Origin: a virus
Direction: 5' to 3' (one strand)
DNA: 64,000 bases
IMG/VR virus record: IMGVR_UViG_3300046780_000484
Span: 1 to 64,000 of that record
The notes under the pieces were generated by a model. It made no database searches. It was not told the origin of the DNA and saw nothing but the letters and a program-made list of their open reading frames with translations. Within the stretch, counting starts at the first letter, position 1, and each line of letters begins with the position of its first letter. Made by a program: the position numbers and the translations under genes. This document shows positions 3,400 through 38,464 of this stretch, piece after piece.

Positions 3400-3614
3400 G
3401 CGACTTCGCCGGCCCTGTCCGCGAGTACCTGGCTTACTGCAAGCGGGCGGCGGCCGAACTCAAGCTCCAGGGCTCGCAACTGGACCCGAAGTATCACCCC
3501 ACCGCTGACGGCGCGGTGAAGATGATCCCCCACGGCGGGGACGCGACCCGGGCGAAGGAGATCCGGGCGGCGTTCCGCGAGCTGACCGAGACCACCGAGA
3601 GGACCGAACGATGA
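3396..3614 (+). CDS. Hypothetical phage protein
   Basis: RBS GGGAGG; ATGA coupling on both sides. Confidence 0.6.
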   Translation: MSDFAGPVREYLAYCKRAAAELKLQGSQLDPKYHPTADGAVKMIPHGGDATRAKEIRAAFRELTETTERTER

Positions 3615-4030
3615 GCACCACCGAGACAAGCGCCGAGCAAGAACGCGATGAGGCCCGCGCGGAGGCCGCCGGGGCGAAGCTGGCCGAGGTCCGCGCTGTG
3701 CTGCTGGAAGGCGGGCAGGATAACGGAACGGCGCGCCGTCGCGCCCTGGCCGTCATCGGCAGCGACGAGGGGGCGCCGGATGTGCTCGGCGACCTCAAGG
3801 CCGAACTAGGCGAGGCCCGTTCGGAAGCTCACATGATCCGCGACCACGCCAGCCGCTACCTCCGCGCCGCCTACGGCCCGGACTACATCTACCGCGCCCC
3901 GGAGACGTTCGGGAACCTCCTCGAGCGGTGGATCTGGGCCGTCGCCGCCGGGGTGCCCGAGATGGCCCACGCGTGCATCGCGGACATCGAGCGGCACTGC
4001 GCCGAACGGGACGAGGCCGGTCATGCCTGA
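3611..4030 (+). CDS. Hypothetical phage protein
   Basis: Coupled ORF with GC3-rich codon usage. Confidence 0.6.
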   Translation: MSTTETSAEQERDEARAEAAGAKLAEVRAVLLEGGQDNGTARRRALAVIGSDEGAPDVLGDLKAELGEARSEAHMIRDHASRYLRAAYGPDYIYRAPETFGNLLERWIWAVAAGVPEMAHACIADIERHCAERDEAGHA

Positions 4031-4355
4031 CGAGCCGCAGTCCCTCGGCGAGGTGCTTCACCGTGCACGGCAGGCCGGAGGGGAGCAGCGGCCCCGCAAG
4101 TGGCCCCCCGAGGACTGGGCCGTCCGTGACCCCCGGCTGCGAGCGCTGGACGAGGCGATGGCAGCGGCGGTCGCAGCGGCGGAACGGGAGCGGATCCGCA
4201 CGGCGGTCTCCGGGGTCATCGCTACCTTCCTGGCGCATTACGGGAAGGGGCAGGGCCGGGCGGATGATCTCGGGGAGGCCGTCAGGCAGGTACTGGACCG
4301 GGAGCCGCTGGAAACGCAAGAGCGCAGCGACGACAAGGAGGCAGGAACACCATGA
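4023..4355 (+). CDS. Hypothetical phage protein
   Basis: Overlapping ORF in the early operon. Confidence 0.6.
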   Translation: MPDEPQSLGEVLHRARQAGGEQRPRKWPPEDWAVRDPRLRALDEAMAAAVAAAERERIRTAVSGVIATFLAHYGKGQGRADDLGEAVRQVLDREPLETQERSDDKEAGTP

Positions 4356-4690
4356 GCGCAGCAGACGAGCCCCGCACCACGGAGTACTGGAAGACGGCCC
4401 TGGTCCTCGCCAGGACGGCCATAGACGACTCGGGGCTGCTCTGCCAGGCCGACGCCGACAAGCTGGCCGAGGCGGTCACCGAGCGGCTCCTGGGGGACTT
4501 CCTGGGCATGGCCGAGATGAGCAGCAGCGTCATGTTCGGGATGGACGGCACCGGGCCGTTCTGCTCGTGGTGCGGGCGGATCCCGGGGCCGAGGCTGCCG
4601 AAGGGGCACCCCCAGCACGGCGTGTTCTGCGACTGCAAGCGCGACCCGGCCGCTGAGGCTGAGGAGCCGGGGGAGGGCAAGGCGGCATGA
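4352..4690 (+). CDS. Hypothetical protein with CxxC motifs
   Basis: ATGA coupling; CSWCG...CDC. Confidence 0.6.
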   Translation: MSAADEPRTTEYWKTALVLARTAIDDSGLLCQADADKLAEAVTERLLGDFLGMAEMSSSVMFGMDGTGPFCSWCGRIPGPRLPKGHPQHGVFCDCKRDPAAEAEEPGEGKAA

Positions 4691-4923
4691 CTGCCGGCAC
4701 CCAGTGCGACAACTGCCGTGTGTTCGGCCCGTCTTACGCCCCCGGCTGGTTCTGCGTCGCGCAGCACCCGGCCGAGGACGAGGAGCCGCGTTTCCTCGCC
4801 GCCGCGCTGTTCGGCAGGCCGTCGGAGCCGCTGACGTTCTGCTCGATCAGGTGCCTGGCCGACTGGGCTTATGTCCGCAACGCTGCGGCCGAGGCGGCAG
4901 CGGGAACGGAGGAACGATCATGA
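4687..4923 (+). CDS. Small Zn-finger-like protein
   Basis: QCDNC...FCSIRCL; ATGA coupling. Confidence 0.65.
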   Translation: MTAGTQCDNCRVFGPSYAPGWFCVAQHPAEDEEPRFLAAALFGRPSEPLTFCSIRCLADWAYVRNAAAEAAAGTEERS

Positions 4924-5129
4924 CCATCCGCAAGTTCCGGGAGGGCGTCCTCGCCGCGAACTGCGACGGGGACGACTGCGGCCAGATGTATGCGGACGAG
5001 GAAAGCGGCGACTACCTGTTCATGTCCCCGGAACGGCTGGCGAGGCTCATGAGGGCGGACGGGTGGAGCGCGGATCCGGTGCTGTGCCCGGCCTGCCAGC
5101 CTGCCGGCCTGATCGCGGAGCAGCCGTGA
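4920..5129 (+). CDS. Small Zn-ribbon protein
   Basis: CDGDDCG...GW....LCPAC; ATGA coupling. Confidence 0.65.
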   Translation: MTIRKFREGVLAANCDGDDCGQMYADEESGDYLFMSPERLARLMRADGWSADPVLCPACQPAGLIAEQP

Positions 5130-5428
5130 ACGCGGCCACCCCGAACCCCCGCTTCCGTGCCCGGAGCGACGCCTTCGCCGGCACCCGCGCGGACCACGCG
5201 GGACCCGATGCCGCCGGCCCCCGCTGCCGTAAGCTCCTGGCCGCCTACGAGGTCCGGGGGATACCGGCCCTGCCCGGTGAGTACGCGGCGTGCGGCCGTC
5301 CTGAGGGGCATGGCGGTCAGTGCTACTCGGAGGCTGCGTGGAGGCGGAAACTGGAAGCGAACGCGCGGGGCGTGCATGCTGCCAGGCGGCGGGAAGCGGC
5401 AGCGAGGGAGACCGCAGATGCCGCCTGA
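5126..5428 (+). CDS. Hypothetical phage protein
   Basis: GTGA coupling; CGRPEGHGGQC motif. Confidence 0.55.
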   Translation: MNAATPNPRFRARSDAFAGTRADHAGPDAAGPRCRKLLAAYEVRGIPALPGEYAACGRPEGHGGQCYSEAAWRRKLEANARGVHAARRREAAARETADAA

Positions 5429-5430
5429 CG

Positions 5431-5506
5431 CTACCCGTTTCGGTAAGTCCTCGCAGGTCGGCCCAGTTACCCATTTCGGTAACCCCGGAATTACCTGTTT
5501 CGGTAA
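5431..5506. repeat. Three copies of a quasi-palindromic 16-mer (T/C)TACCYRTTTCGGTAA
   Basis: Copies at 5431-5446, 5467-5482 and 5491-5506, in an AT-richer intergenic gap between convergent genes. Confidence 0.8.
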
Positions 5507-5584
5507 GTCGGTGCAGGTAAATCGGGGGATGTACTGGCTTGCTTCCTGCTGGTACCGTTATCCCCGCCGTGCGGGGCGGGTGGG

Positions 5585-31800: not shown

Positions 31801-32950
31801 CCGCCATGGCGCCGGTGACCTGCTGCATGCGGTTGTGCAGGACCATGGCGGCGATGCCGCGGTCGACCATCGCGATCGTCTGCACGCCCATCCCGGTGAA
31901 CGCTCCGGAACCCTGGCCTACCAGGTCACGCAGGCCGCCGCCGATCCCGAAGACGCCACCCTGGGCTAGGTTCTGGGCGTTCTGGAGGTTACGGCTGAGT
32001 CCCAGCATGGTGCCGAACGTCTGGTTGCCGTACGCGCCGCCGAGGGCTTCCTGCGCGTTGTACATGGCGTTGCCGCGCAGGTAGAGATTCTGGCCTGCCT
32101 GGAGCCCGACAGCGCCTGCGGCCCCGGCCGCTACCGCTGCGGGGATGACCGTGGACAGGGTTTCCATGGTGAGCATGGTGATCATGTGGGCAGCCTGGAG
32201 GGTGGGCAGCGCCCCGCCGAAGATCTTGCTGGCGAGTCCGCCGGCGGCAGCGCCGGCAAGAGCGCCGCCCCCGCCACCCCCGCCGCCGCCGCCTCCTGCG
32301 GCTGCTGCGGCGAGCGCTGCGGCCCCCCATCCGCCTCCGCCGCCGCCTCCTGGCATACCGCCGCGAAGGCTTCCGCCATACAAATCCGCGAACGGGGTGA
32401 GATTTTCCGTGAGGTTATATCCGCTGCGACTTCCGCGCCCCACAGTCCCAGCAGCATCCCGGGTTGCCCTAACGAAGCGCGTCGTAGCCTCGGCAGCAGC
32501 ATCATGCGCGTCTGCGTTGTCCCGCAGGGTCTGCGTCTGCGCCCTCATCCCGTCAGCGGAGTCAGCGACGTTCCGGCTGATGACCCCCAGGTGCGTTTCC
32601 ATCCGCCCCATGGAGTCGGTCGCCATGTCCATGTACGTGGAGATGTCCTTGAGGTGCTGGACCATCTCCCCGTTGCCGCCGCCGACGTGGACGGTCTTGT
32701 CGCCGAGGCCGTCAAGGGCGGCCCTGAGCGCGGCAACCTTTCCCATCGCGGCGGAGGTGTCGACGTCGATCTTGATGTGCTTGTCCGGGAGGGCGGCCAT
32801 CGCGGTCCCGAGCCCGGCGATCTCGCGCTTGACCTTGGCGATGTCGGCGACTAGCCCCTCGTTCGCCTTGATCATCTTGGCGACGCCGGCTATGTAGCCT
32901 GAGGCGTCTGCGACGAAGGCCTGCTCGACTGATGGCAATCCGCCCGGCAC
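28841..32950 (-). CDS. Tape measure protein
   Basis: 1369 aa, A/G/Q-rich; F.ADAS.Y N-terminus; GGLVPGSGSGDIIPAMLEPGEVVVP motif. Confidence 0.9.
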   Translation of the reverse strand: MPGGLPSVEQAFVADASGYIAGVAKMIKANEGLVADIAKVKREIAGLGTAMAALPDKHIKIDVDTSAAMGKVAALRAALDGLGDKTVHVGGGNGEMVQHLKDISTYMDMATDSMGRMETHLGVISRNVADSADGMRAQTQTLRDNADAHDAAAEATTRFVRATRDAAGTVGRGSRSGYNLTENLTPFADLYGGSLRGGMPGGGGGGGWGAAALAAAAAGGGGGGGGGGGALAGAAAGGLASKIFGGALPTLQAAHMITMLTMETLSTVIPAAVAAGAAGAVGLQAGQNLYLRGNAMYNAQEALGGAYGNQTFGTMLGLSRNLQNAQNLAQGGVFGIGGGLRDLVGQGSGAFTGMGVQTIAMVDRGIAAMVLHNRMQQVTGAMAGGTGFLRTFGDIGANIGDTLLNLAPNLPGIGPGLIGGLKGITGAAAFATGHIPGPLLGAGLAAEAGWRWGGPVLGGGKLPGWLGGAKFGGLAGLAERLGLGTVADAGAGIEGAGLAGVLGAGAGPIGLAAALSAFAMTQLASTMPTGPMRQMAGLQAGIDQSFGAGALHPITKAMYQAAQGAAGVPTAGYAGYVANYFPAMQASSTYARFGPGAGMGPTAAQVYQNALGSFGQQLGDLVTAGPSAIKALQGIGIKGTTLTQAFEAMSMAMISPKDIKGGQLDATAKQQLRQFAQTYRTATIGGQPGTASGLLMAGAADYIMSTTQMKSLAQVNQGLDAMTQIMTGGPAGQAALFGMLGGTPVTHTRAGLRMPAGPAYPAMAKALSNIFTPQGAAAWTTFAGPQGMVAAQQANLDQMRTYLTLGAITGQQGTRLSAFDLQQMLPLTAHSPMAQAMLEQQAMQANIPGISVGMSYKNLVRAITGSAGTPAQAQAILTQGTKAVANIPAIAADLITGGMGGPSALQSGLTAQMAQQALALAAHPLARGGGVNAAGLQGLTSSLAMGGVKPGQMTVAVDAILKNLHVPSGLVAKINAQLNTAQVQSQLGALKGKQVSAKVNVQGAGQLKTLENQIAALKSKNVQAAAHVQGAAAVAALNAEIAALHSKEVTITTRMITIGGMAGVTRGIPVGVRAPGMQTGGLVPGSGSGDIIPAMLEPGEVVVPRNLVSLIAPILAAHRVPGFGAPQSHSTHFAAGGIVPHMIGFPDPTRMSGNLGHLAWTLIDGITSALKQAGAGKIAQALVGKITQELAYARSVSSAAQQGLNLSGMDPAQGSVADQMQSYLGSVKSFTGDIGTLRKQHLNKSLIAQLIAAGPVQGDALAQSILTGGGTSGSGVGQVNSLWAQLGKASNALGAQAAMAQYGGMTAPNLRSAGATTNHVTINVSGGGSGGLNLSAADIKKITEQVQAALLRQARRNNKTGLQASGKGA

Positions 32951-32967
32951 AGGTCACCCCCTCCGCA

Positions 32968-33453
32968 TCACGGGTCGTACGGGCGGAACGCCTCGATCGC
33001 GATCCGCTGCAGTTCCCCGTCATCGATCGCGTCCTCGGTGGTCGGCTCGAGGAACGGGTGCTTCTCCATGAGGACCGACCGGTGCCGCCAGATCCCCCCG
33101 GAGTCCTTCCAGCCCATGTGCCTGCCGGACGTGGGCCGCAGGAGGCAGGAGCCGAACTCGAAGACGTGCGCCCGCCTGTCCGTGGACCCCGCCGACGACG
33201 ACGACCGCAGCCCTTCCGTCGCCGGGGTCGAGTACATGCTGTCCGCCAGCGCCCCGGATCCGTACGAGGGGGGCTCGCCCGGCCGGGCCTTGTAGTAGGT
33301 GCCGGGCGGGTTGATCCGCCGGGTCAGGGTCTCGTTCGCCGTCCGGTCCGCGATGTACCGGGCCATCGCCCCGGCGGCTGCGGGAGCGCCCAGCCTAGCC
33401 TTCGCCAGGACGGCTTCCAGGTAGGCGACGTTCTGCTCGGGAGTGATCGCCAC
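32968..33453 (-). CDS. HK97 gp10-like neck/tail completion protein
   Basis: PGEPP....G.LADS, VFEFG, HPFLEP. Confidence 0.7.
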   Translation of the reverse strand: MAITPEQNVAYLEAVLAKARLGAPAAAGAMARYIADRTANETLTRRINPPGTYYKARPGEPPSYGSGALADSMYSTPATEGLRSSSSAGSTDRRAHVFEFGSCLLRPTSGRHMGWKDSGGIWRHRSVLMEKHPFLEPTTEDAIDDGELQRIAIEAFRPYDP

Positions 33454-33476
33454 GGAGCACCCCCCGGAGCGTCCTC

Positions 33477-33717
33477 AGATCGCCGCCGGCCGCCTGGAGG
33501 GGCATCACCCGCGCGCTGAGGCACGGCCGGCTCCAGCCAAGCCCTACACGGCGGTAGCGGCCCTTCCAGTCGCCGCCGGGCGCGCCGAAACCGAACCGTT
33601 CTGTCGGCTGACCCTCGCACCACCACCACACCGGCCGGCCGAGCGCCATCAGCTCAGCCGCCTCAGCCCACGTACCCCGCGCCACCCAGCCGCTCAGATG
33701 TGATCGAGAAACACGCC
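33477..33717 (-). pseudogene. Displaced 3' half of gene X (paralogue of 35948-36397); its first bases are the predicted TnpB guide
   Basis: GVFLD/(+5 nt)/LSGWVARGTWAE...RPVWWWCEGQPTERFGF...GDWKGRYRRVGLGW aligns with the C-terminal half of 35948-36397. Confidence 0.85.
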
Positions 33718-33860
33718 TTGACATCCTCCTTGCGTAATACAAGGATTCCCGGCGGCGCTCATGCGGCACCTGCCAGAGGTTCACGCAACCGCCTCCCGGC
33801 AAGCCGGGGACTCGGCGCTGTGCGCCTGCGCGTGCTGTTAAGGCCGGCTGCCCGCCGGGC
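33718..33860 (-). ncRNA. TnpB omegaRNA scaffold / IS200-IS605 right end
   Basis: Minus strand reads GGGAATCCTTGTATTACGCAAGGAGGATGTCAA: a subterminal hairpin and a TCAA terminus at 33718, directly after the tnpB stop. The 5' limit is approximate. Confidence 0.75.
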
Positions 33861-35042
33861 CTTCCGCTCAATATTCAGAGCGGCATTCTTGTCCGCGTGA
33901 TCGGTGTGGCCGCATGCGGTGCAGGCGAACTCCCGCCCGCAGCCGGGTCTACTTTTGGGATCCACTGTCCCGCATGCCGAGCACGTTTGAGACGTGAACG
34001 GCGCGGGAACCACCCGCAGTTCGCTCCCGAACAGGGGAGCCTTGTACTCCAACTGGCGGCGCCGTTCGTAAGGGATATTGTCCAGGATCGCCCGGTTGAG
34101 AGCCGCCTTCTGGCGGATGTTCTTACCGGGAGCGTCGGCAGTACCCTTCGCGCTTGCCGTCATCCTCATCACCCGCAAGTCCTCGATGCCGACGTAGCCG
34201 TGGTTTTTGGCGAGGTCGGTCGTGAGCTTGTGGGTGAAGTCGAGCCTGCGCCGCGCTTGCCGACCGCGCAGATCAGCGATAGCGGCGTACGTCTTGCGGA
34301 GACGACTGGAGTACCGGCCGCCGTTGTGCTTCTTTGCATAGGCGAGCTGCCGCCGCGCCCGGCGCTCCAATCCAAGCAGCCGTTTCTGCTCACCCGGCGT
34401 GAGAGTCGGAGGCATCAGCCGGGGCGCATCCTCGTCGGAGACGTAGGCTGCGCAGGTAGTGCCGAAGTCCACCCCGCAACCCGGCTTCTCGTTTGCCGGA
34501 GCGGCCTTGCGGCCCGTTGCGACACCGACGACGAGATGCCATATGCCCGCACCGTTCACCTTGACCGTTGCGTTCCGCAGTTCACCGCCGAGCGATCGGG
34601 ACCAGCGGAACCGCACCCATCCGATCTTCGGGAGCCGGATTTCGCTCCAGTGTCGGTTCAGCCGCCGTATCTTCAGATCCTGGCCGGTGAACGGGACGGC
34701 AAGGATCTTGCTGCGCTTCTTGCGCTCGGGGGCACCCGCCAGATGTCGCGGGTTCCACCAGTTGTCGTAGGCGCGGTCAAGATGCCTGAGGATCTGGTGT
34801 GCGCTCTGGGCTGGCATGTCGGTCAGCCAGGGCAGGTCGGCGCGGGCCTGGGTTAGGTAGGCACTCTGATCGAAGGCGCGCAAGGTGCGCCGTCGCTGTT
34901 CCCAGACGAACCGGCGCTGCTCCAGCGCGAGATTCCAGACAGTGCGGCACATGTGACCCCAGGCAGTCAAGCGTTCCGCTTGATCTGGTTCTGGGTACAG
35001 GCGATACTTCCGCGCAGAGTCTGCCTTGCGAGTCTCGCTCAC
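33759..35042 (-). CDS. tnpB: RNA-guided endonuclease TnpB
   Basis: YRLYP N-terminal HTH, RuvC-I GVDFG, RuvC-II IEDL, Zn finger CSACG/CTACG, RuvC-III ADKNAALNI; all three catalytic acids are present. Confidence 0.96.
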   Translation of the reverse strand: MSETRKADSARKYRLYPEPDQAERLTAWGHMCRTVWNLALEQRRFVWEQRRRTLRAFDQSAYLTQARADLPWLTDMPAQSAHQILRHLDRAYDNWWNPRHLAGAPERKKRSKILAVPFTGQDLKIRRLNRHWSEIRLPKIGWVRFRWSRSLGGELRNATVKVNGAGIWHLVVGVATGRKAAPANEKPGCGVDFGTTCAAYVSDEDAPRLMPPTLTPGEQKRLLGLERRARRQLAYAKKHNGGRYSSRLRKTYAAIADLRGRQARRRLDFTHKLTTDLAKNHGYVGIEDLRVMRMTASAKGTADAPGKNIRQKAALNRAILDNIPYERRRQLEYKAPLFGSELRVVPAPFTSQTCSACGTVDPKSRPGCGREFACTACGHTDHADKNAALNIERKARRAAGLNSTRRRTAPSPRLAGRRLREPLAGAA

Positions 35043-35776
35043 GACGTCTCATCGAGCCGGTCGAATAGGCTTCTTTGCGCGCTCATGACTCCGACCAGCA
35101 GGTAGGAGTGGGCCCGGTGTGCTCGCTGCTGGCGTTTGGTTGGCTGCGGCATCCGAGAGGTGTTGACCAAGACGAACATGTCGGCCAGGTCCACGCCCGC
35201 CGCCGCCATGATCCGGATGACGTCAAGATGCACGAGGTGCAGCCGGTGGTTGTAGGTCATGTCCTGGCACTTGACCATCAGCCGCCCGGTGCCGGGAGCC
35301 AAGACGCGAGCGCACTCGCGAACACCGTCCCGGTACAGGTCCAGTACGTCGTTCATAGTCTGACGCCCGGTGGTGTTCAGCGCGTAACTGCGGCCAACCC
35401 CGAAGTTGCGCTCAGGCTTGCCGTGTACCGGCTGGTAGGGCGGGTCGAACACCGCTACGTCAACGCTGCCATCGGCGTATGGCAGGTTCCGGCAGTCGGC
35501 CACGAGGTCAGCCTTCGCGGTCGGCCGGATATCGCTGCACGTCACCTCAAGCTTGGGGGCGGATCTCCAGAACACGCCCTCGCCGCAAGTCACATCGACC
35601 ACCCGGTCATCCGAGGTGATCCACAGTTGGGCGACTTGCTCAATCAGCCGGTCATTGGTGCCGACAACCGCCGACGTGACCACATCGGGCGTTACTCCGG
35701 GGCAGATGACTGGCGCTCCATAGGCAACCGGATCTGTCGGAGTATATCGCCCGCGTAGCCCGCTACCAGGTGTCAT
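35039..35776 (-). CDS. SAM-dependent DNA amino-methyltransferase
   Basis: VVDVTCGEG motif I and FDPPY motif IV; GTGA-coupled to tnpB. Confidence 0.85.
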   Translation of the reverse strand: MTPGSGLRGRYTPTDPVAYGAPVICPGVTPDVVTSAVVGTNDRLIEQVAQLWITSDDRVVDVTCGEGVFWRSAPKLEVTCSDIRPTAKADLVADCRNLPYADGSVDVAVFDPPYQPVHGKPERNFGVGRSYALNTTGRQTMNDVLDLYRDGVRECARVLAPGTGRLMVKCQDMTYNHRLHLVHLDVIRIMAAAGVDLADMFVLVNTSRMPQPTKRQQRAHRAHSYLLVGVMSAQRSLFDRLDETS

Positions 35777-35798
35777 GTACGCAGTGTACCATATTGGG

Positions 35799-35993
35799 AT
35801 GGAGCCGAAGCGAATGGGCACACGCGAGTTGCGGGACAATCTCAGCGTCCGTATCGACGCCGCCTACGTCCGCCATGAACCGACGATCGTCACCAGGAAC
35901 GGGCGACCAAGAGCCGTACTCATCTCGTACGAGGAATGGCTCATGTCTCAAGCAAGGGGACGGGACCAGGAGGCCTGCACCGGCCCGCCATAG
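35799..35993 (+). CDS. Phd/YefM-family antitoxin-like regulator (no toxin partner)
   Basis: MGTRELRDNLS..ID......TIVTRNGRPRAVLISYEEW. Confidence 0.85.
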   Translation: MEPKRMGTRELRDNLSVRIDAAYVRHEPTIVTRNGRPRAVLISYEEWLMSQARGRDQEACTGPP

Positions 35994-36397
35994 CCGAGAC
36001 CGACACGACGATAGCGATATCCCCAGTCCCCGCGAATGCCGTCCGGACTGAATCCGAACCTGTCCGTCGGATCGCCGTCGCAGAACCACCAGACGGGCTT
36101 GTTGTCCGACAGTAGGCCGCAAACCTCCAAGTAGGTACCCCTAGCTACCCATCGGTTCACGTCTAGGAACACGCCGTAGGCTGCCTGCCGCCTCACCTCG
36201 GGCCACAGGGCCTGCCACTCCTTCGTGTTCCGGTAGAGATCCTCCGCGACCAGCACCCTCACCGGGCAGCCAGTCAGCGTGTGGAACGGGAACTCGCGGG
36301 CCGCCTCGAGGACGGGAGTGCCATACAAGGCCATCGGGGACATCAAATAAAGAACAGGCGGCGACGAGGAAATGACAGGCCGGAAATGCGGGAGCAT
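35948..36397 (-). CDS. Gene X: nucleoside 2-deoxyribosyltransferase-like (DUF1937/DUF4406-like) protein
   Basis: VLYLMSP...YG N-terminus and W..RGT..E......KPVW C-terminal motif of the NDT-like fold; AT-rich synonymous codons. Confidence 0.6.
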   Translation of the reverse strand: MLPHFRPVISSSPPVLYLMSPMALYGTPVLEAAREFPFHTLTGCPVRVLVAEDLYRNTKEWQALWPEVRRQAAYGVFLDVNRWVARGTYLEVCGLLSDNKPVWWFCDGDPTDRFGFSPDGIRGDWGYRYRRVGLGYGGPVQASWSRPLA

Positions 36398-36403
36398 GTA
36401 TAA

Positions 36404-37565
36404 TTAAAGGCGTAAGGAGCGTCGCGCTGCCATGCGCGTCAGGAGTTCGTCAATGGCCGGTCCCATGTATTTCTCGGCGACATTGCCGACCTCGTACTGG
36501 CTCACCGACTCGCGGAGTTTTACCTGGTCAACGTCCTGCCGCTGCTCGTACGACTGCTCCAGCGCCGCAACCATTCCTGAAATGGAAGGGCGAATCCACC
36601 AGCCCCTGTGGACGCCATTGAAAAACGGCTCGCCGTCCACCTGGATGCCGTCCGGGTTCAGTTCCTCCATGGACGAGCAGCGGGTCGTGATGACGGGCGT
36701 CCCGCACGCTTTTGCTTCAACGATGGGCAGCCCGAATCCTTCCGCGTACGTCGCCGCCAGCAGCACGTCGCACATCCCGTACCAGTCAGCGAGATCAGCC
36801 GGCTGGATCAGCCCCGCGTTGTACCGGTACTGGTCCACTACCCGAACCCGGTCCGTGATCCCCAGCGACTCCGCCAGGAACTCCAGGTCCTGCCCCCCGT
36901 CGCAGTGCACCGCCGTGTGCAGCCACAGCAGCGAATCCGGCCGCGACCGCAGGAACTTCGCGAACGCGAGCAGCATCTCCGCCGGCGCCTTCCTGATCGC
37001 GTCGTTGTTAGCCGCGTTCACGCCGATCACGAACGTCTCCGGGCCGAGCCCGGCCGCCTCCCGCAGCGCCGCCCGGTCCTCCGGGATGACCCACGTGTCG
37101 AACGGGATGCCGTGCGGCACGTAGAGGGCGTTGCCGAACCCGGCATCCCGGAACCGGTCCAGCCCGAACCGGGACATCGCTATCAGCGAGGCCCCGCCTG
37201 CTTCCACCACGTTCCTGTCCGCCACGGACATCGGACGGCAGTCCGCGGGCAGCCAGTGCGCCACCGGGAGTTCCTTGAGCACGCCCGGGTCCATCACCCA
37301 CACGTCGCCCAGGGTGATCACCAGATCGGGCTGGATGTGGCGGGAGTGCTGCTGGAGGGACGGGCTGCAGTACGACCCGCCGAAGCCGGGAAGGACCGGG
37401 ATGCCCTCCCACTGGGTGACGGATCCCGACAGGCCCCAGTACGTAGCGATGAACACCTCGTGGCCCAATCCGGCAAGGCGCTTTATCCAGATTGCGGTCT
37501 GTTGTCCGTAACCGCTTTAAACTGGCGGACCACGGAGCGCAGCTGCTCCACAAGATCCTCGCCAT
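36404..37565 (-). CDS. GT4-family glycosyltransferase, reading frame broken at a TTA codon (37518-37520)
   Basis: MARILWSSCAPWSAS in one frame, then GYGQQT...GHEV, VPHGI and EGFGLPIVEAKACGTPVI in the +1 frame. Confidence 0.85.
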
Positions 37566-37672
37566 TAAGCACCACCTCCCCTCGTCAGGGAGACGCGATG
37601 CCACGAAATACGGGTCACTCGCCGCCCCTCTCTAGTGCCACAGAAAATGGCGCATTGTGTTATTATGGATAA

Positions 37673-38464
37673 GTGAAAGAAATCCCCTTGCGTGGTCGCC
37701 ACGGGCAAGGTCGCGTCATGCTTGTGGATGACGAAGACTACGAGCTAATGTCCCGCATTAAATGGCACGCCATCGTCGATAACAACGGCTGCCTGAGCGT
37801 TCAGGCACGGATCTCTGCCCACAACTTCCTTACCGGCTACGCGCTGACCGATCACGCCAACGGGAACCCTCTGGACAACACCCGAGGGAACCTGCGCGAT
37901 GCCACATCCAGGCAGAACAGCTGGAACAGGCGACTCAGGAGCGACTCCCGAACTGGCTATAAAGGCGTCAACTCAAGGCGGGGCGGGCGAGGGTACGTCG
38001 CACGGATCCTCGTAGACGGGAAGCGTAAAACGCTGGGATGGTTTCACGATCCGATCAACGCCGCGAAGGCGTACGACGCGGCAGCCCGTGAAGCCTTCGG
38101 GGAGTTCGCCCGGCTTAATTTCCCGGATAGCGAAGACCTTCCGGACGCCCGGGAGTCTCGGGTTTCTCGTACGCAGCGCCGCGTCCGGGAGACGATTTCC
38201 GGAATGGAGGATCAGCCCAGCGGAAAGCAGTCCAAGTACTCGGAGGCCAGCTGGAACCGGCCCTACCGCGGGGGAACGCGGGCAGGCTTCAAGGGGGTCA
38301 ACTGGTCAGGCAGGAGATGGCAGGCTCGCATCATGAAAGACGGGAAGCGGCACTTCCTCGGCACCTACGACACCGCCGAGGAGGCGGCCCGAGCGTATGA
38401 CGCCGCCGCTTGCACCCTGTTCGGGGGTCATGCGCGGTTGAACTTCCCAGGGGAGGCGGCGTGA
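37673..38464 (+). CDS. HNH-AP2 homing endonuclease (two AP2 domains)
   Basis: LVDDEDY, DHANGNPLDNTRGNLR, and two GYKGV...ARI..G.R..LG.F....AA.AYD.AA...FG..ARLNFP domains. Confidence 0.92.
   Translation: MKEIPLRGRHGQGRVMLVDDEDYELMSRIKWHAIVDNNGCLSVQARISAHNFLTGYALTDHANGNPLDNTRGNLRDATSRQNSWNRRLRSDSRTGYKGVNSRRGGRGYVARILVDGKRKTLGWFHDPINAAKAYDAAAREAFGEFARLNFPDSEDLPDARESRVSRTQRRVRETISGMEDQPSGKQSKYSEASWNRPYRGGTRAGFKGVNWSGRRWQARIMKDGKRHFLGTYDTAEEAARAYDAAACTLFGGHARLNFPGEAA

Follow-up and report, generated by a model that had tools for sequence, protein, structure and literature searches.

TnpB proteins of IS200/IS605 elements cleave the donor sites that their transposon has vacated and so retain it there, and horizontal spread by TnpB without the transposase TnpA is backed by a plasmid experiment and by theory, the case of phages being theoretical, as set out in the portions of a 2026 review on which we draw (PMC13565253). 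Here we describe a tnpB cassette in the phage record IMGVR_UViG_3300046780_000484, an 81.6-kb soil viral record from IMG/VR that is classed as linear and estimated to be 67% complete (CheckV), and whose first 64 kb are the stretch analysed below, hereafter the window. The only tnpB of the record lies inside a gene that we call X, is followed by the displaced 3' half of that gene, from which its guide would be taken, and is preceded by a foreign half that completes the X reading frame. It is nearly certain that a family-typical insertion occurred at a CTAC in an X gene, that the left end of the element was later lost and a heterologous X half took its place, and that TnpB, omegaRNA and a Phd-like gene were retained intact. 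That the cassette spreads by homing is the reading that we favour, tentatively and at somewhat less than an even chance.

The nearest described systems are the TnpB-only (IS1341-type) IS200/IS605 elements and their restorative homing. In the parts of the two sources that concern them, they have the same TnpB domains and a right end and omegaRNA that stop at the guide, and likewise a tetranucleotide target on the 5' side, a guide formed by the flank of the right end, and the pre-insertion allele as target (PMC10055086, Meers et al.; PMC13565253). In contrast to these elements, the cassette described here has no left-end hairpin and no TnpA, so that excision and re-insertion are impossible; it also carries a Phd-like gene and a methyltransferase gene, and a half of the disrupted gene replaces its left end. 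The free-standing homing endonucleases of T-even phages (SegF, Mob) are, as at our locus, encoded between conserved phage genes, and in the intronless homing of these phages the self allele is spared by substitutions near the target while spread proceeds via recombinational repair in co-infected cells, with co-conversion or marker exclusion; here this is proposed only (PMC13565253, in the section on these nucleases). Unlike the T-even enzymes, the cassette is predicted to recognise its target through a guide RNA and a target-adjacent motif (TAM) rather than through protein, and it lies inside its target gene and supplies the missing half.

Two further systems invite comparison. In the prophage fliCP-tldR arrangement, a phage-borne TnpB-family protein and its guide target a gene of which the phage carries a homologue, and this homologue escapes through changes in TAM and seed, according to the portion of the source that treats this locus (PMC10705468). 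The RuvC triad is gone from TldR, which acts as a transcriptional repressor of a host gene; our TnpB retains the triad, and its predicted target is a member of the phage's own gene family. IStrons, which combine a group I intron with an IS605 or IS607 TnpB, keep the interrupted gene functional while retaining TnpB, and copies with TnpB only are read as a sign of homing in the passages that discuss them (PMC10690162; PMC13565253). Our locus differs from IStrons in that no group I intron was found (an Rfam scan of 32500-37500 gave 0 matches at E<=1) and a duplicate half, not splicing, would restore function, in the DNA itself. Synthetic home-and-rescue and cleave-and-rescue drives have been engineered in insects with Cas9; they pair a guided nuclease directed against the wild-type allele with a recoded, immune rescue copy. 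The same logic is proposed here, and the locus would then be an as yet unproven natural phage counterpart of such drives. Full-text literature searches, whose scope excludes subscription journals and supplements, turned up no account of a TnpB element bringing with it a substitute for the half of a gene that it displaced.

The protein and the right end of the cassette are those of an intact family member. TnpB matches the Pfam families HTH_OrfB_IS605, OrfB_IS605 and Cas12f1-like_TNB (E 1.5e-19, 1.4e-10 and 4e-9) and aligns over its length to structures of ISDra2 TnpB (E 2.5e-32). A first-pass annotation of the window had called its RuvC D/E/D triad intact, and D192, E287 and D384, together with the four cysteines of a zinc ribbon, are indeed invariant in 25 aligned TnpBs. 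A search based on a TnpB alignment supplied 160 loci of TnpB relatives (80 from genomes and 80 from metagenomes), and a motif search located right ends in 86 instances among them and one in the window. All these right ends terminate in GTCAA or GTCAC and are followed by unrelated flanks. The window right end stops at 33718 (...GGAGGATGTCAA), with GGCGTGTTTCTCGAT from 33717 on; the boundary between right end and guide that had been proposed at 33718/33717 is thus matched by 86 related right ends, and because it is family-wide, the predicted guide (GGCGTGTTTCTCGATC) starts at 33717. The guide length of about 16 nt is taken from work on ISDra2 TnpB. Of the residues in the GVFLD motif that the guide encodes, V76, F77 and D79 show no variation across 42 X proteins. 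A guide that matches the old allele is a property of every IS200/IS605 insertion and is nothing special. An alignment of 38 sequences showed that the invariant blocks of the omegaRNA are kept in the window (AGCACGCGCAG, GCGTGAAC, GGGAATC and GAGGATGTCAA), and that the terminal hairpin covaries among the 38 relatives, with compensatory changes at 6 of 17 predicted pairs. A promoter scan gave no sigma-70-like site, a result that is uninformative for actinomycete promoters.

The left junction shows where the element entered X. The intact X reads CCTAC at 36180-36176, followed by GGCGTGTTCCTAGAC at 36175-36161. Left ends of related elements carry the hairpin CAGTGCGCCGGCCTTCAGGCCGG.GGTGAAGG and, among 25 aligned rows, have CTAC directly before them in 21, CTAT in three and TTAC in one (some of these rows are near-duplicate loci), with unrelated sequence further upstream. 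Left ends of this TnpB family thus independently have as their flanking motif the CTAC that had been picked out in the window. IS608 has its target TTAC 5' of the left end and a right end that terminates in TCAA, and by analogy CTAC is likely to be both target and TAM of this family. Since the left junction of the window reads CCTAC/GGCGTG, the insertion point in X is canonical for the family.

What should follow such a junction is missing. The left-end hairpin gave no match in the cassette by blastn-short at E<=1, and a left-end profile built from 19 sequences (nhmmer) found nothing there, its best window match (E 0.58) lying elsewhere. A profile of the four Phd-type left ends matched the window only from 35952 onward (E 2e-8), that is, from the X stop codon. 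With the hairpin missing and Phd-type homology resuming at 35952, the new half (36175 to ~35953) sits exactly where the left end should be. A pairwise comparison had hinted at a left-end vestige beneath the X tail, which was rejected since the profile search gave it no significance. Consistent with the claim that no TnpA is present, searches of the 81.6-kb record (67% complete) for Y1 TnpA (PF01797) and serine recombinase (PF00239) gave no match to either, and controls matched. With left end and TnpA both absent, recombination is the only route of movement left. Judged by protein, right end and target motif, the element is a derivative of the IS200/IS605 TnpB family, and we call it degenerate and immobilised because it lacks a left end and a TnpA.

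X itself has two origins. A search of a collection of ~5.8 billion proteins returned 78 matches to X, the window's own and 77 homologues, all of them from metagenomes, viral contigs or one metagenome-assembled genome. The eight closest (P0122-P0129) share 74-91% identity with the N-terminal half of the window X, the upper value being reached with natural X proteins such as P0123, and 80-89% with the remnant of the C-terminal half beyond the right end. Their identity to the new half is 58-65%, no homologue among the 77 exceeds 65%, and the new half is a better match than the remnant in just 14 of the 77. Because the same closest homologues match both the N-terminal half and the remnant, and not the new half, the first two make up the resident gene, and X is, on this pattern of identities, a chimera whose new half came from elsewhere. 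A hidden Markov model (HMM) of the X family, built with the window left out, scored the remnant at 106.6 bits and the new half at 83.2 bits; natural X halves scored 103-113 bits, but these belonged to the training set. In an alignment of 42 sequences, the new half deviates from the consensus at near-invariant positions such as G82 (R) and G99 (N), and it has a 2-residue insert and lacks the C-terminal tail of the X family.

The second copy of the C-terminal half that had been reported after the right end is real, as the HMM score of the remnant and a direct comparison show: tblastx of the right-end flank against the upstream X gave E 3.9e-20, the next best of 72 TnpB loci giving 9e-12. In high-GC DNA this comparison is noisy, and 60 of the 72 loci score some match at E<=1e-3; an upstream duplication of the right-end flank is found in the window alone, 1 of the 72 loci tested. 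At the DNA level, the alignment of the remnant to cassette-free X begins precisely with the base that follows the TAC codon before GVFLD, and the remnant merges into the next gene (start 33453) in the same way as X does in cassette-free relatives. Compared to cassette-free alleles, its 264 nt contain a sole lesion, at 33699-33692, which proved to be a 2-nt surplus with a TGA (33696-33694) instead of the 5-nt frameshift first described. With only one lesion in the remnant, the arrival of the cassette was recent on the divergence scale of these phages. The lesion lies 19-26 nt from the right end and could be a repair scar or donor-derived sequence. Characterised TnpBs cut in a zone ~19-26 nt from the right end; that the position of the lesion fits homing is only suggestive. 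A 158-codon open reading frame (33871-33395, minus strand) runs from the 3' end of tnpB through the right end and on in the shifted frame of the remnant, as far as an overlap with the start of the next gene; it may be due to chance in high-GC DNA or to translational coupling that was kept.

X had no significant match in Pfam, in PHROGs or with a PDB sequence profile. A structure model from 42 sequences (mean predicted local distance difference test score, pLDDT, 79.7) resembles the folds of nucleoside 2-deoxyribosyltransferase, DNPH1 and MilB (Foldseek E ~0.03; VIA Z 7.8, with a root-mean-square deviation of 3.1 over 103-108 residues in the VIA superposition). The modelled likeness to nucleoside 2-deoxyribosyltransferase and DNPH1 is a hint and not an assignment.

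Between the two junctions, the Phd-like gene is convergent with X (46-nt overlap) and divergent from the operon of methyltransferase and tnpB; the antitoxin-like gene had been placed on the minus strand, and it is in fact on the plus strand. Its start codon overlaps that of the methyltransferase gene on the palindrome ATGGTACACTGCGTACAT (35792-35775). In the six nearest TnpB loci (L009, L076, L088, L089, L091 and L112), a Phd-like gene divergently abuts tnpB itself, and the two start codons overlap (CATG) on the conserved palindrome ATGGTACnCTGnGTACAT; no Phd-TnpB module was seen in the other 154 of the 160 loci. The methyltransferase stop codon overlaps the tnpB start (GTGA), and the first ~35 nt of the methyltransferase gene (35740-35776, minus strand) share homology with the tnpB 5' end of the relatives (35000-35042, minus strand, in the window tnpB). 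This tnpB-like beginning indicates that the methyltransferase gene was secondarily inserted in the Phd-TnpB module, behind the original tnpB start, and a methyltransferase homologue is absent from all 160 loci. Among toxin-antitoxin families in Pfam, searched with eight open reading frames of the region (not with every short one), only Phd itself matched. The Phd-like protein may act on TnpB, as a regulator or as an antagonist.

The composition of the cassette sets it apart from its surroundings. The GC content at third codon positions (GC3) is 0.71 in the new X half (76 codons), 0.74 in the Phd-like gene, 0.77 in the methyltransferase gene and 0.76 in tnpB. The corresponding values are 0.94 in the downstream structural gene, 0.88 in the tape measure gene and 0.93 in the 90 bases of X immediately left of the junction, 0.79-0.96 in the C-terminal halves of nine other X alleles, and 0.82-0.89 in eight TnpB relatives. 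As the GC3 of the new half groups with that of the cassette, the block probably shares a history outside this phage, and by their composition the new X half, Phd-like gene, methyltransferase gene, tnpB and omegaRNA look like one imported block. The first-pass annotation had described the new half as a recoded replacement: a foreign half with the composition of the cassette is what we find, and deliberate recoding is indistinguishable in it from ordinary divergence between alleles.

The features of the locus are collected in Table 1. On rechecking, the main coordinates and anatomy given earlier hold, save for the strand of the Phd-like gene and the size of the frameshift.

Table 1. Features of the X locus and its neighbours, with positions in the window.
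Feature	Coordinates	Strand	Remarks
Group-1 glycosyltransferase gene (GT)	37468-36404	minus	
Gene X	36397-35948	minus	149 aa; without Pfam or PHROG family
X N-terminal half, resident	36176..36397	minus	74 codons, last ones ...GCC TAC
X C-terminal half, foreign replacement	35948..36175	minus	in frame
Phd/YefM-like small gene	35775-35993	plus	PF02604, E 6.8e-10
DNA methyltransferase gene	35776-35039	minus	phrog_24333, E 8e-40; DPPY motif
tnpB	35042-33759	minus	427 aa
omegaRNA scaffold and transposon right end	33718..33876	minus	last letters GGAGGATGTCAA
Predicted 16-nt guide	33702..33717	minus	GGCGTGTTTCTCGATC; codes for GVFLD, conserved X motif
Remnant of original X C-terminal half	33454..33717	minus	runs into next gene
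Downstream structural gene (gp10 slot)	33453-32968	minus	3' of X in related phages
Tape measure gene	32950-28841	minus	

We propose the following course of events. An IS1341-like TnpB-only element with a Phd-like gene and a methyltransferase gene came to lie at a canonical CTAC in the phage accessory gene X, and its left-end hairpin was replaced by a foreign, in-frame X 3' half, restoring the open reading frame. From then on the block would move by homologous recombination alone, with crossovers in the N-terminal half of X and in the remnant, so that the displaced half of X would double as guide source and right homology arm. TnpB and its omegaRNA, with the guide GGCGTGTTTCTCGATC beside CTAC, would cut the cassette-free X alleles of the lineage, the putative target being CTAC-GGCGTGTTTCTCGATC or, in longer form, CCTAC followed by GGCGTGTTTCTCGATCAC, whereas mismatches at positions 9, 12, 15 and 16 onward would protect the allele of the phage itself. 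Phages in the same infected cell would, once cut, be more apt to receive a copy of the block, in the manner of transposon non-restorative homing or intronless homing. We infer from sequence that the system is expressed, cleaves, spares itself and biases inheritance. In addition, we favour transfer of the block as a unit from a donor that probably had the same architecture, because its parts have a similarly low GC3, the new half has diverged extremely and the remnant is fresh; homing would produce such a transfer, and a passive route is also possible. That the cassette is a natural home-and-rescue gene drive, with a cleavage-immune X half and a Phd-like protein that controls expression of the nuclease, is a more doubtful proposition than homing as such.

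Comparison with relatives bears directly on this proposal. With X, the downstream gene and the X alignment as queries, we retrieved 13 distinct related contigs among viral contigs. X is uninterrupted and leads straight into the downstream gene in 11 of the 13, L004 being cut by the contig end. The X site thus shows a presence/absence polymorphism, with the cassette in the window alone, 11 cassette-free X genes and two contigs without X. The first-pass annotation had predicted CTAC with a near-perfect guide match in such relatives, and this prediction was not borne out: none of the 11 cassette-free alleles has CTAC at the site (L002 reads ATAC, the others have TTC or TGC codons), and they differ from the guide at 2-5 of its first 16 positions. 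This is a weak test of the guide match, as the sampled phages are distant (54-69% identity in X) and not the relevant hosts. At the protein level, 19 of the 77 X homologues read AYGVFLD, and X alleles with the Tyr codon therefore exist. The mismatches between the guide and the intact X that had been noted at positions 9, 12 and 15 were seen, and they continue from position 16 onward (4 of 16); the self allele reads GGCGTGTTCCTAGACG after CTAC and, over a longer stretch after CCTAC, GGCGTGTTCCTAGACGTG.

Several of these observations weigh against homing. Besides the lack of CTAC and the guide mismatches in the relatives, the 4 of 16 mismatches of the self allele fall within the natural range of 2-5, so that immunity by design is indistinguishable from divergence. 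X is absent from L006 and L007, where the downstream gene lies directly 3' of the glycosyltransferase gene; X is therefore dispensable, and a rescue copy is not obviously needed. tnpB, the Phd-like gene and the methyltransferase gene are absent from all 13 related contigs, the 78 protein matches include no protein like the new half save the window's own, and a degenerate pattern of the junction between right end and GVFLD had 0 matches in the viral contigs. Altogether, the viral contigs, the 160 TnpB loci, the 13 relatives and the 5.8-billion-protein collection yielded neither another cassette nor another copy of the new half. Contigs of the probable source run contain no joint that skips the cassette, contigs being prone to drop rare variants; the single-sequence fold of the omegaRNA is no better than that of shuffles (z -1.04), which leaves the case for the omegaRNA to its conservation; and GC3 over the 76 codons of the new half is noisy (standard error ~0.05).

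Other searches gave a similar picture. Single-sequence searches of the viral contigs with TnpB and with the methyltransferase had no match. A set of 50,697 records of cultured phages, from which the window's own record is possibly left out, likewise yielded none to 32900-37600 (megablast) or to X (tblastn). tblastn of TnpB against the same set matched 97 records, none of them close (best identity 38%). When 401 genomes sampled from the class of genome G001 were scanned with an X profile, none gave a match, a result of little weight since the set had no positive control genome. In sum, the earlier interpretation is partly supported: anatomy, boundaries, the foreign half and the absence of TnpA and left end agree with it; matching target alleles and a second copy were not found.

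Since the cassette is unique and matching targets are lacking, a one-off accident is nearly as likely as homing. A Phd-TnpB element mobilised by a host TnpA in trans would have inserted at CTAC in X, and a single recombination with a divergent X allele would subsequently have restored the gene and deleted the left end, by a homologous crossover on the left, in the conserved LWPEVRRQAAYGVFLD, and an illegitimate one on the right, near the end of the Phd-like gene; the element would now be a stranded relic with TnpB as a passenger. Uniqueness across all collections searched agrees with such a history, as do the placing of the left crossover within the best-conserved X DNA, the dispensability of X, and the nature of the GT-X-gp10 region as an insertion hotspot (HNH and HTH genes, a 1.4-kb insert, X loss). 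Its starting material is also at hand: in actinomycete genomes, family members whose left end is complete are common, and Y1 TnpA genes occur in one of five host genomes of relatives. However, an accident requires two recent independent events, each from a source of lower GC3, in a phage with GC3 of 0.9; the new half is unlike any sampled X lineage (<=65%); and TnpB, omegaRNA and Phd-like gene show no decay although the element cannot transpose. It is unlikely that TnpB has instead been domesticated for a role other than homing, be it destruction of competitor phages whose X alleles match the guide, an exclusion in which nothing is copied, or a Phd-controlled addiction or regulation system in which the methyltransferase is the useful cargo that retains the block in the phage. 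Linkage of Phd to tnpB in the six nearest relatives, the conserved palindrome at their shared start, and the translational coupling of methyltransferase and tnpB would suit such a role. A toxin-antitoxin mode for TnpB has been proposed and competitor killing by homing endonucleases is discussed in the review passages used here (PMC13565253), and at the TldR loci of prophages a TnpB relative guided by RNA occurs together with a replacement gene that is immune to it (PMC10705468). In contrast to TldR, the RuvC triad is intact here, and neither a toxin partner nor a target besides X was identified.

The arrangement could also be an assembly chimera in which two phage variants were misjoined at the repeated X halves, as the record is a metagenome assembly and does contain two such halves. 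We consider this very improbable. The two C-terminal halves of X are just 58% identical as protein (32/55) and thus too different for misjoining, and the junctions coincide exactly with CTAC and the family right-end boundary. Furthermore, a separately built 26-kb Logan contig spans 32800-37600 with the identical arrangement, zero differences and an even depth of 13.8, though it may derive from the same sample. In a second soil study, two low-depth pieces of 151 nt are 100% identical to 34918-35068 and 35183-35333 of the window, in the methyltransferase/tnpB region; the same phage or the cassette may be present in more than one sample.

The surroundings of X vary as well. The slot from the glycosyltransferase gene through X to the downstream gene is hypervariable across related phages: L004 has an HNH gene between the glycosyltransferase gene and X (4155-4622), L005 has two HTH genes there (4841-5511), and L168 has a 1.4-kb insert (3605-5001). 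In the window, an AP2-HNH endonuclease gene lies upstream of the glycosyltransferase gene (37673-38464, plus strand). The glycosyltransferase gene is apparently frameshifted near a TTTAAA run (~37564-37468, minus strand), its first 15 codons (MARILWSSCAPWSAS) being in one frame and SGYGQQTAIW... in another, with a TAA just before; the Logan contig is identical at this site. Both the 3' third of the glycosyltransferase gene (36800-36404) and the first 30 codons of X (36397-36308) have a lowered GC3, of 0.70-0.90. A co-conversion tract extending into the glycosyltransferase gene was considered and rejected, because identity to 10 relatives shows no drop there despite the fall in GC3.

The locus is thus a concrete natural candidate, with intact nuclease and guide motifs, no transposition, both homology arms, and a gene repaired by a foreign half. 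Should the nuclease be inactive, the locus would still show that a phage can mend insertion-sequence damage with a gene half from a heterologous source. With an active nuclease, the cassette would represent a compact TnpB of actinobacteria, CTAC being its probable TAM, and it would establish RNA-guided homing in phages, a natural counterpart of engineered rescue-type gene drives.

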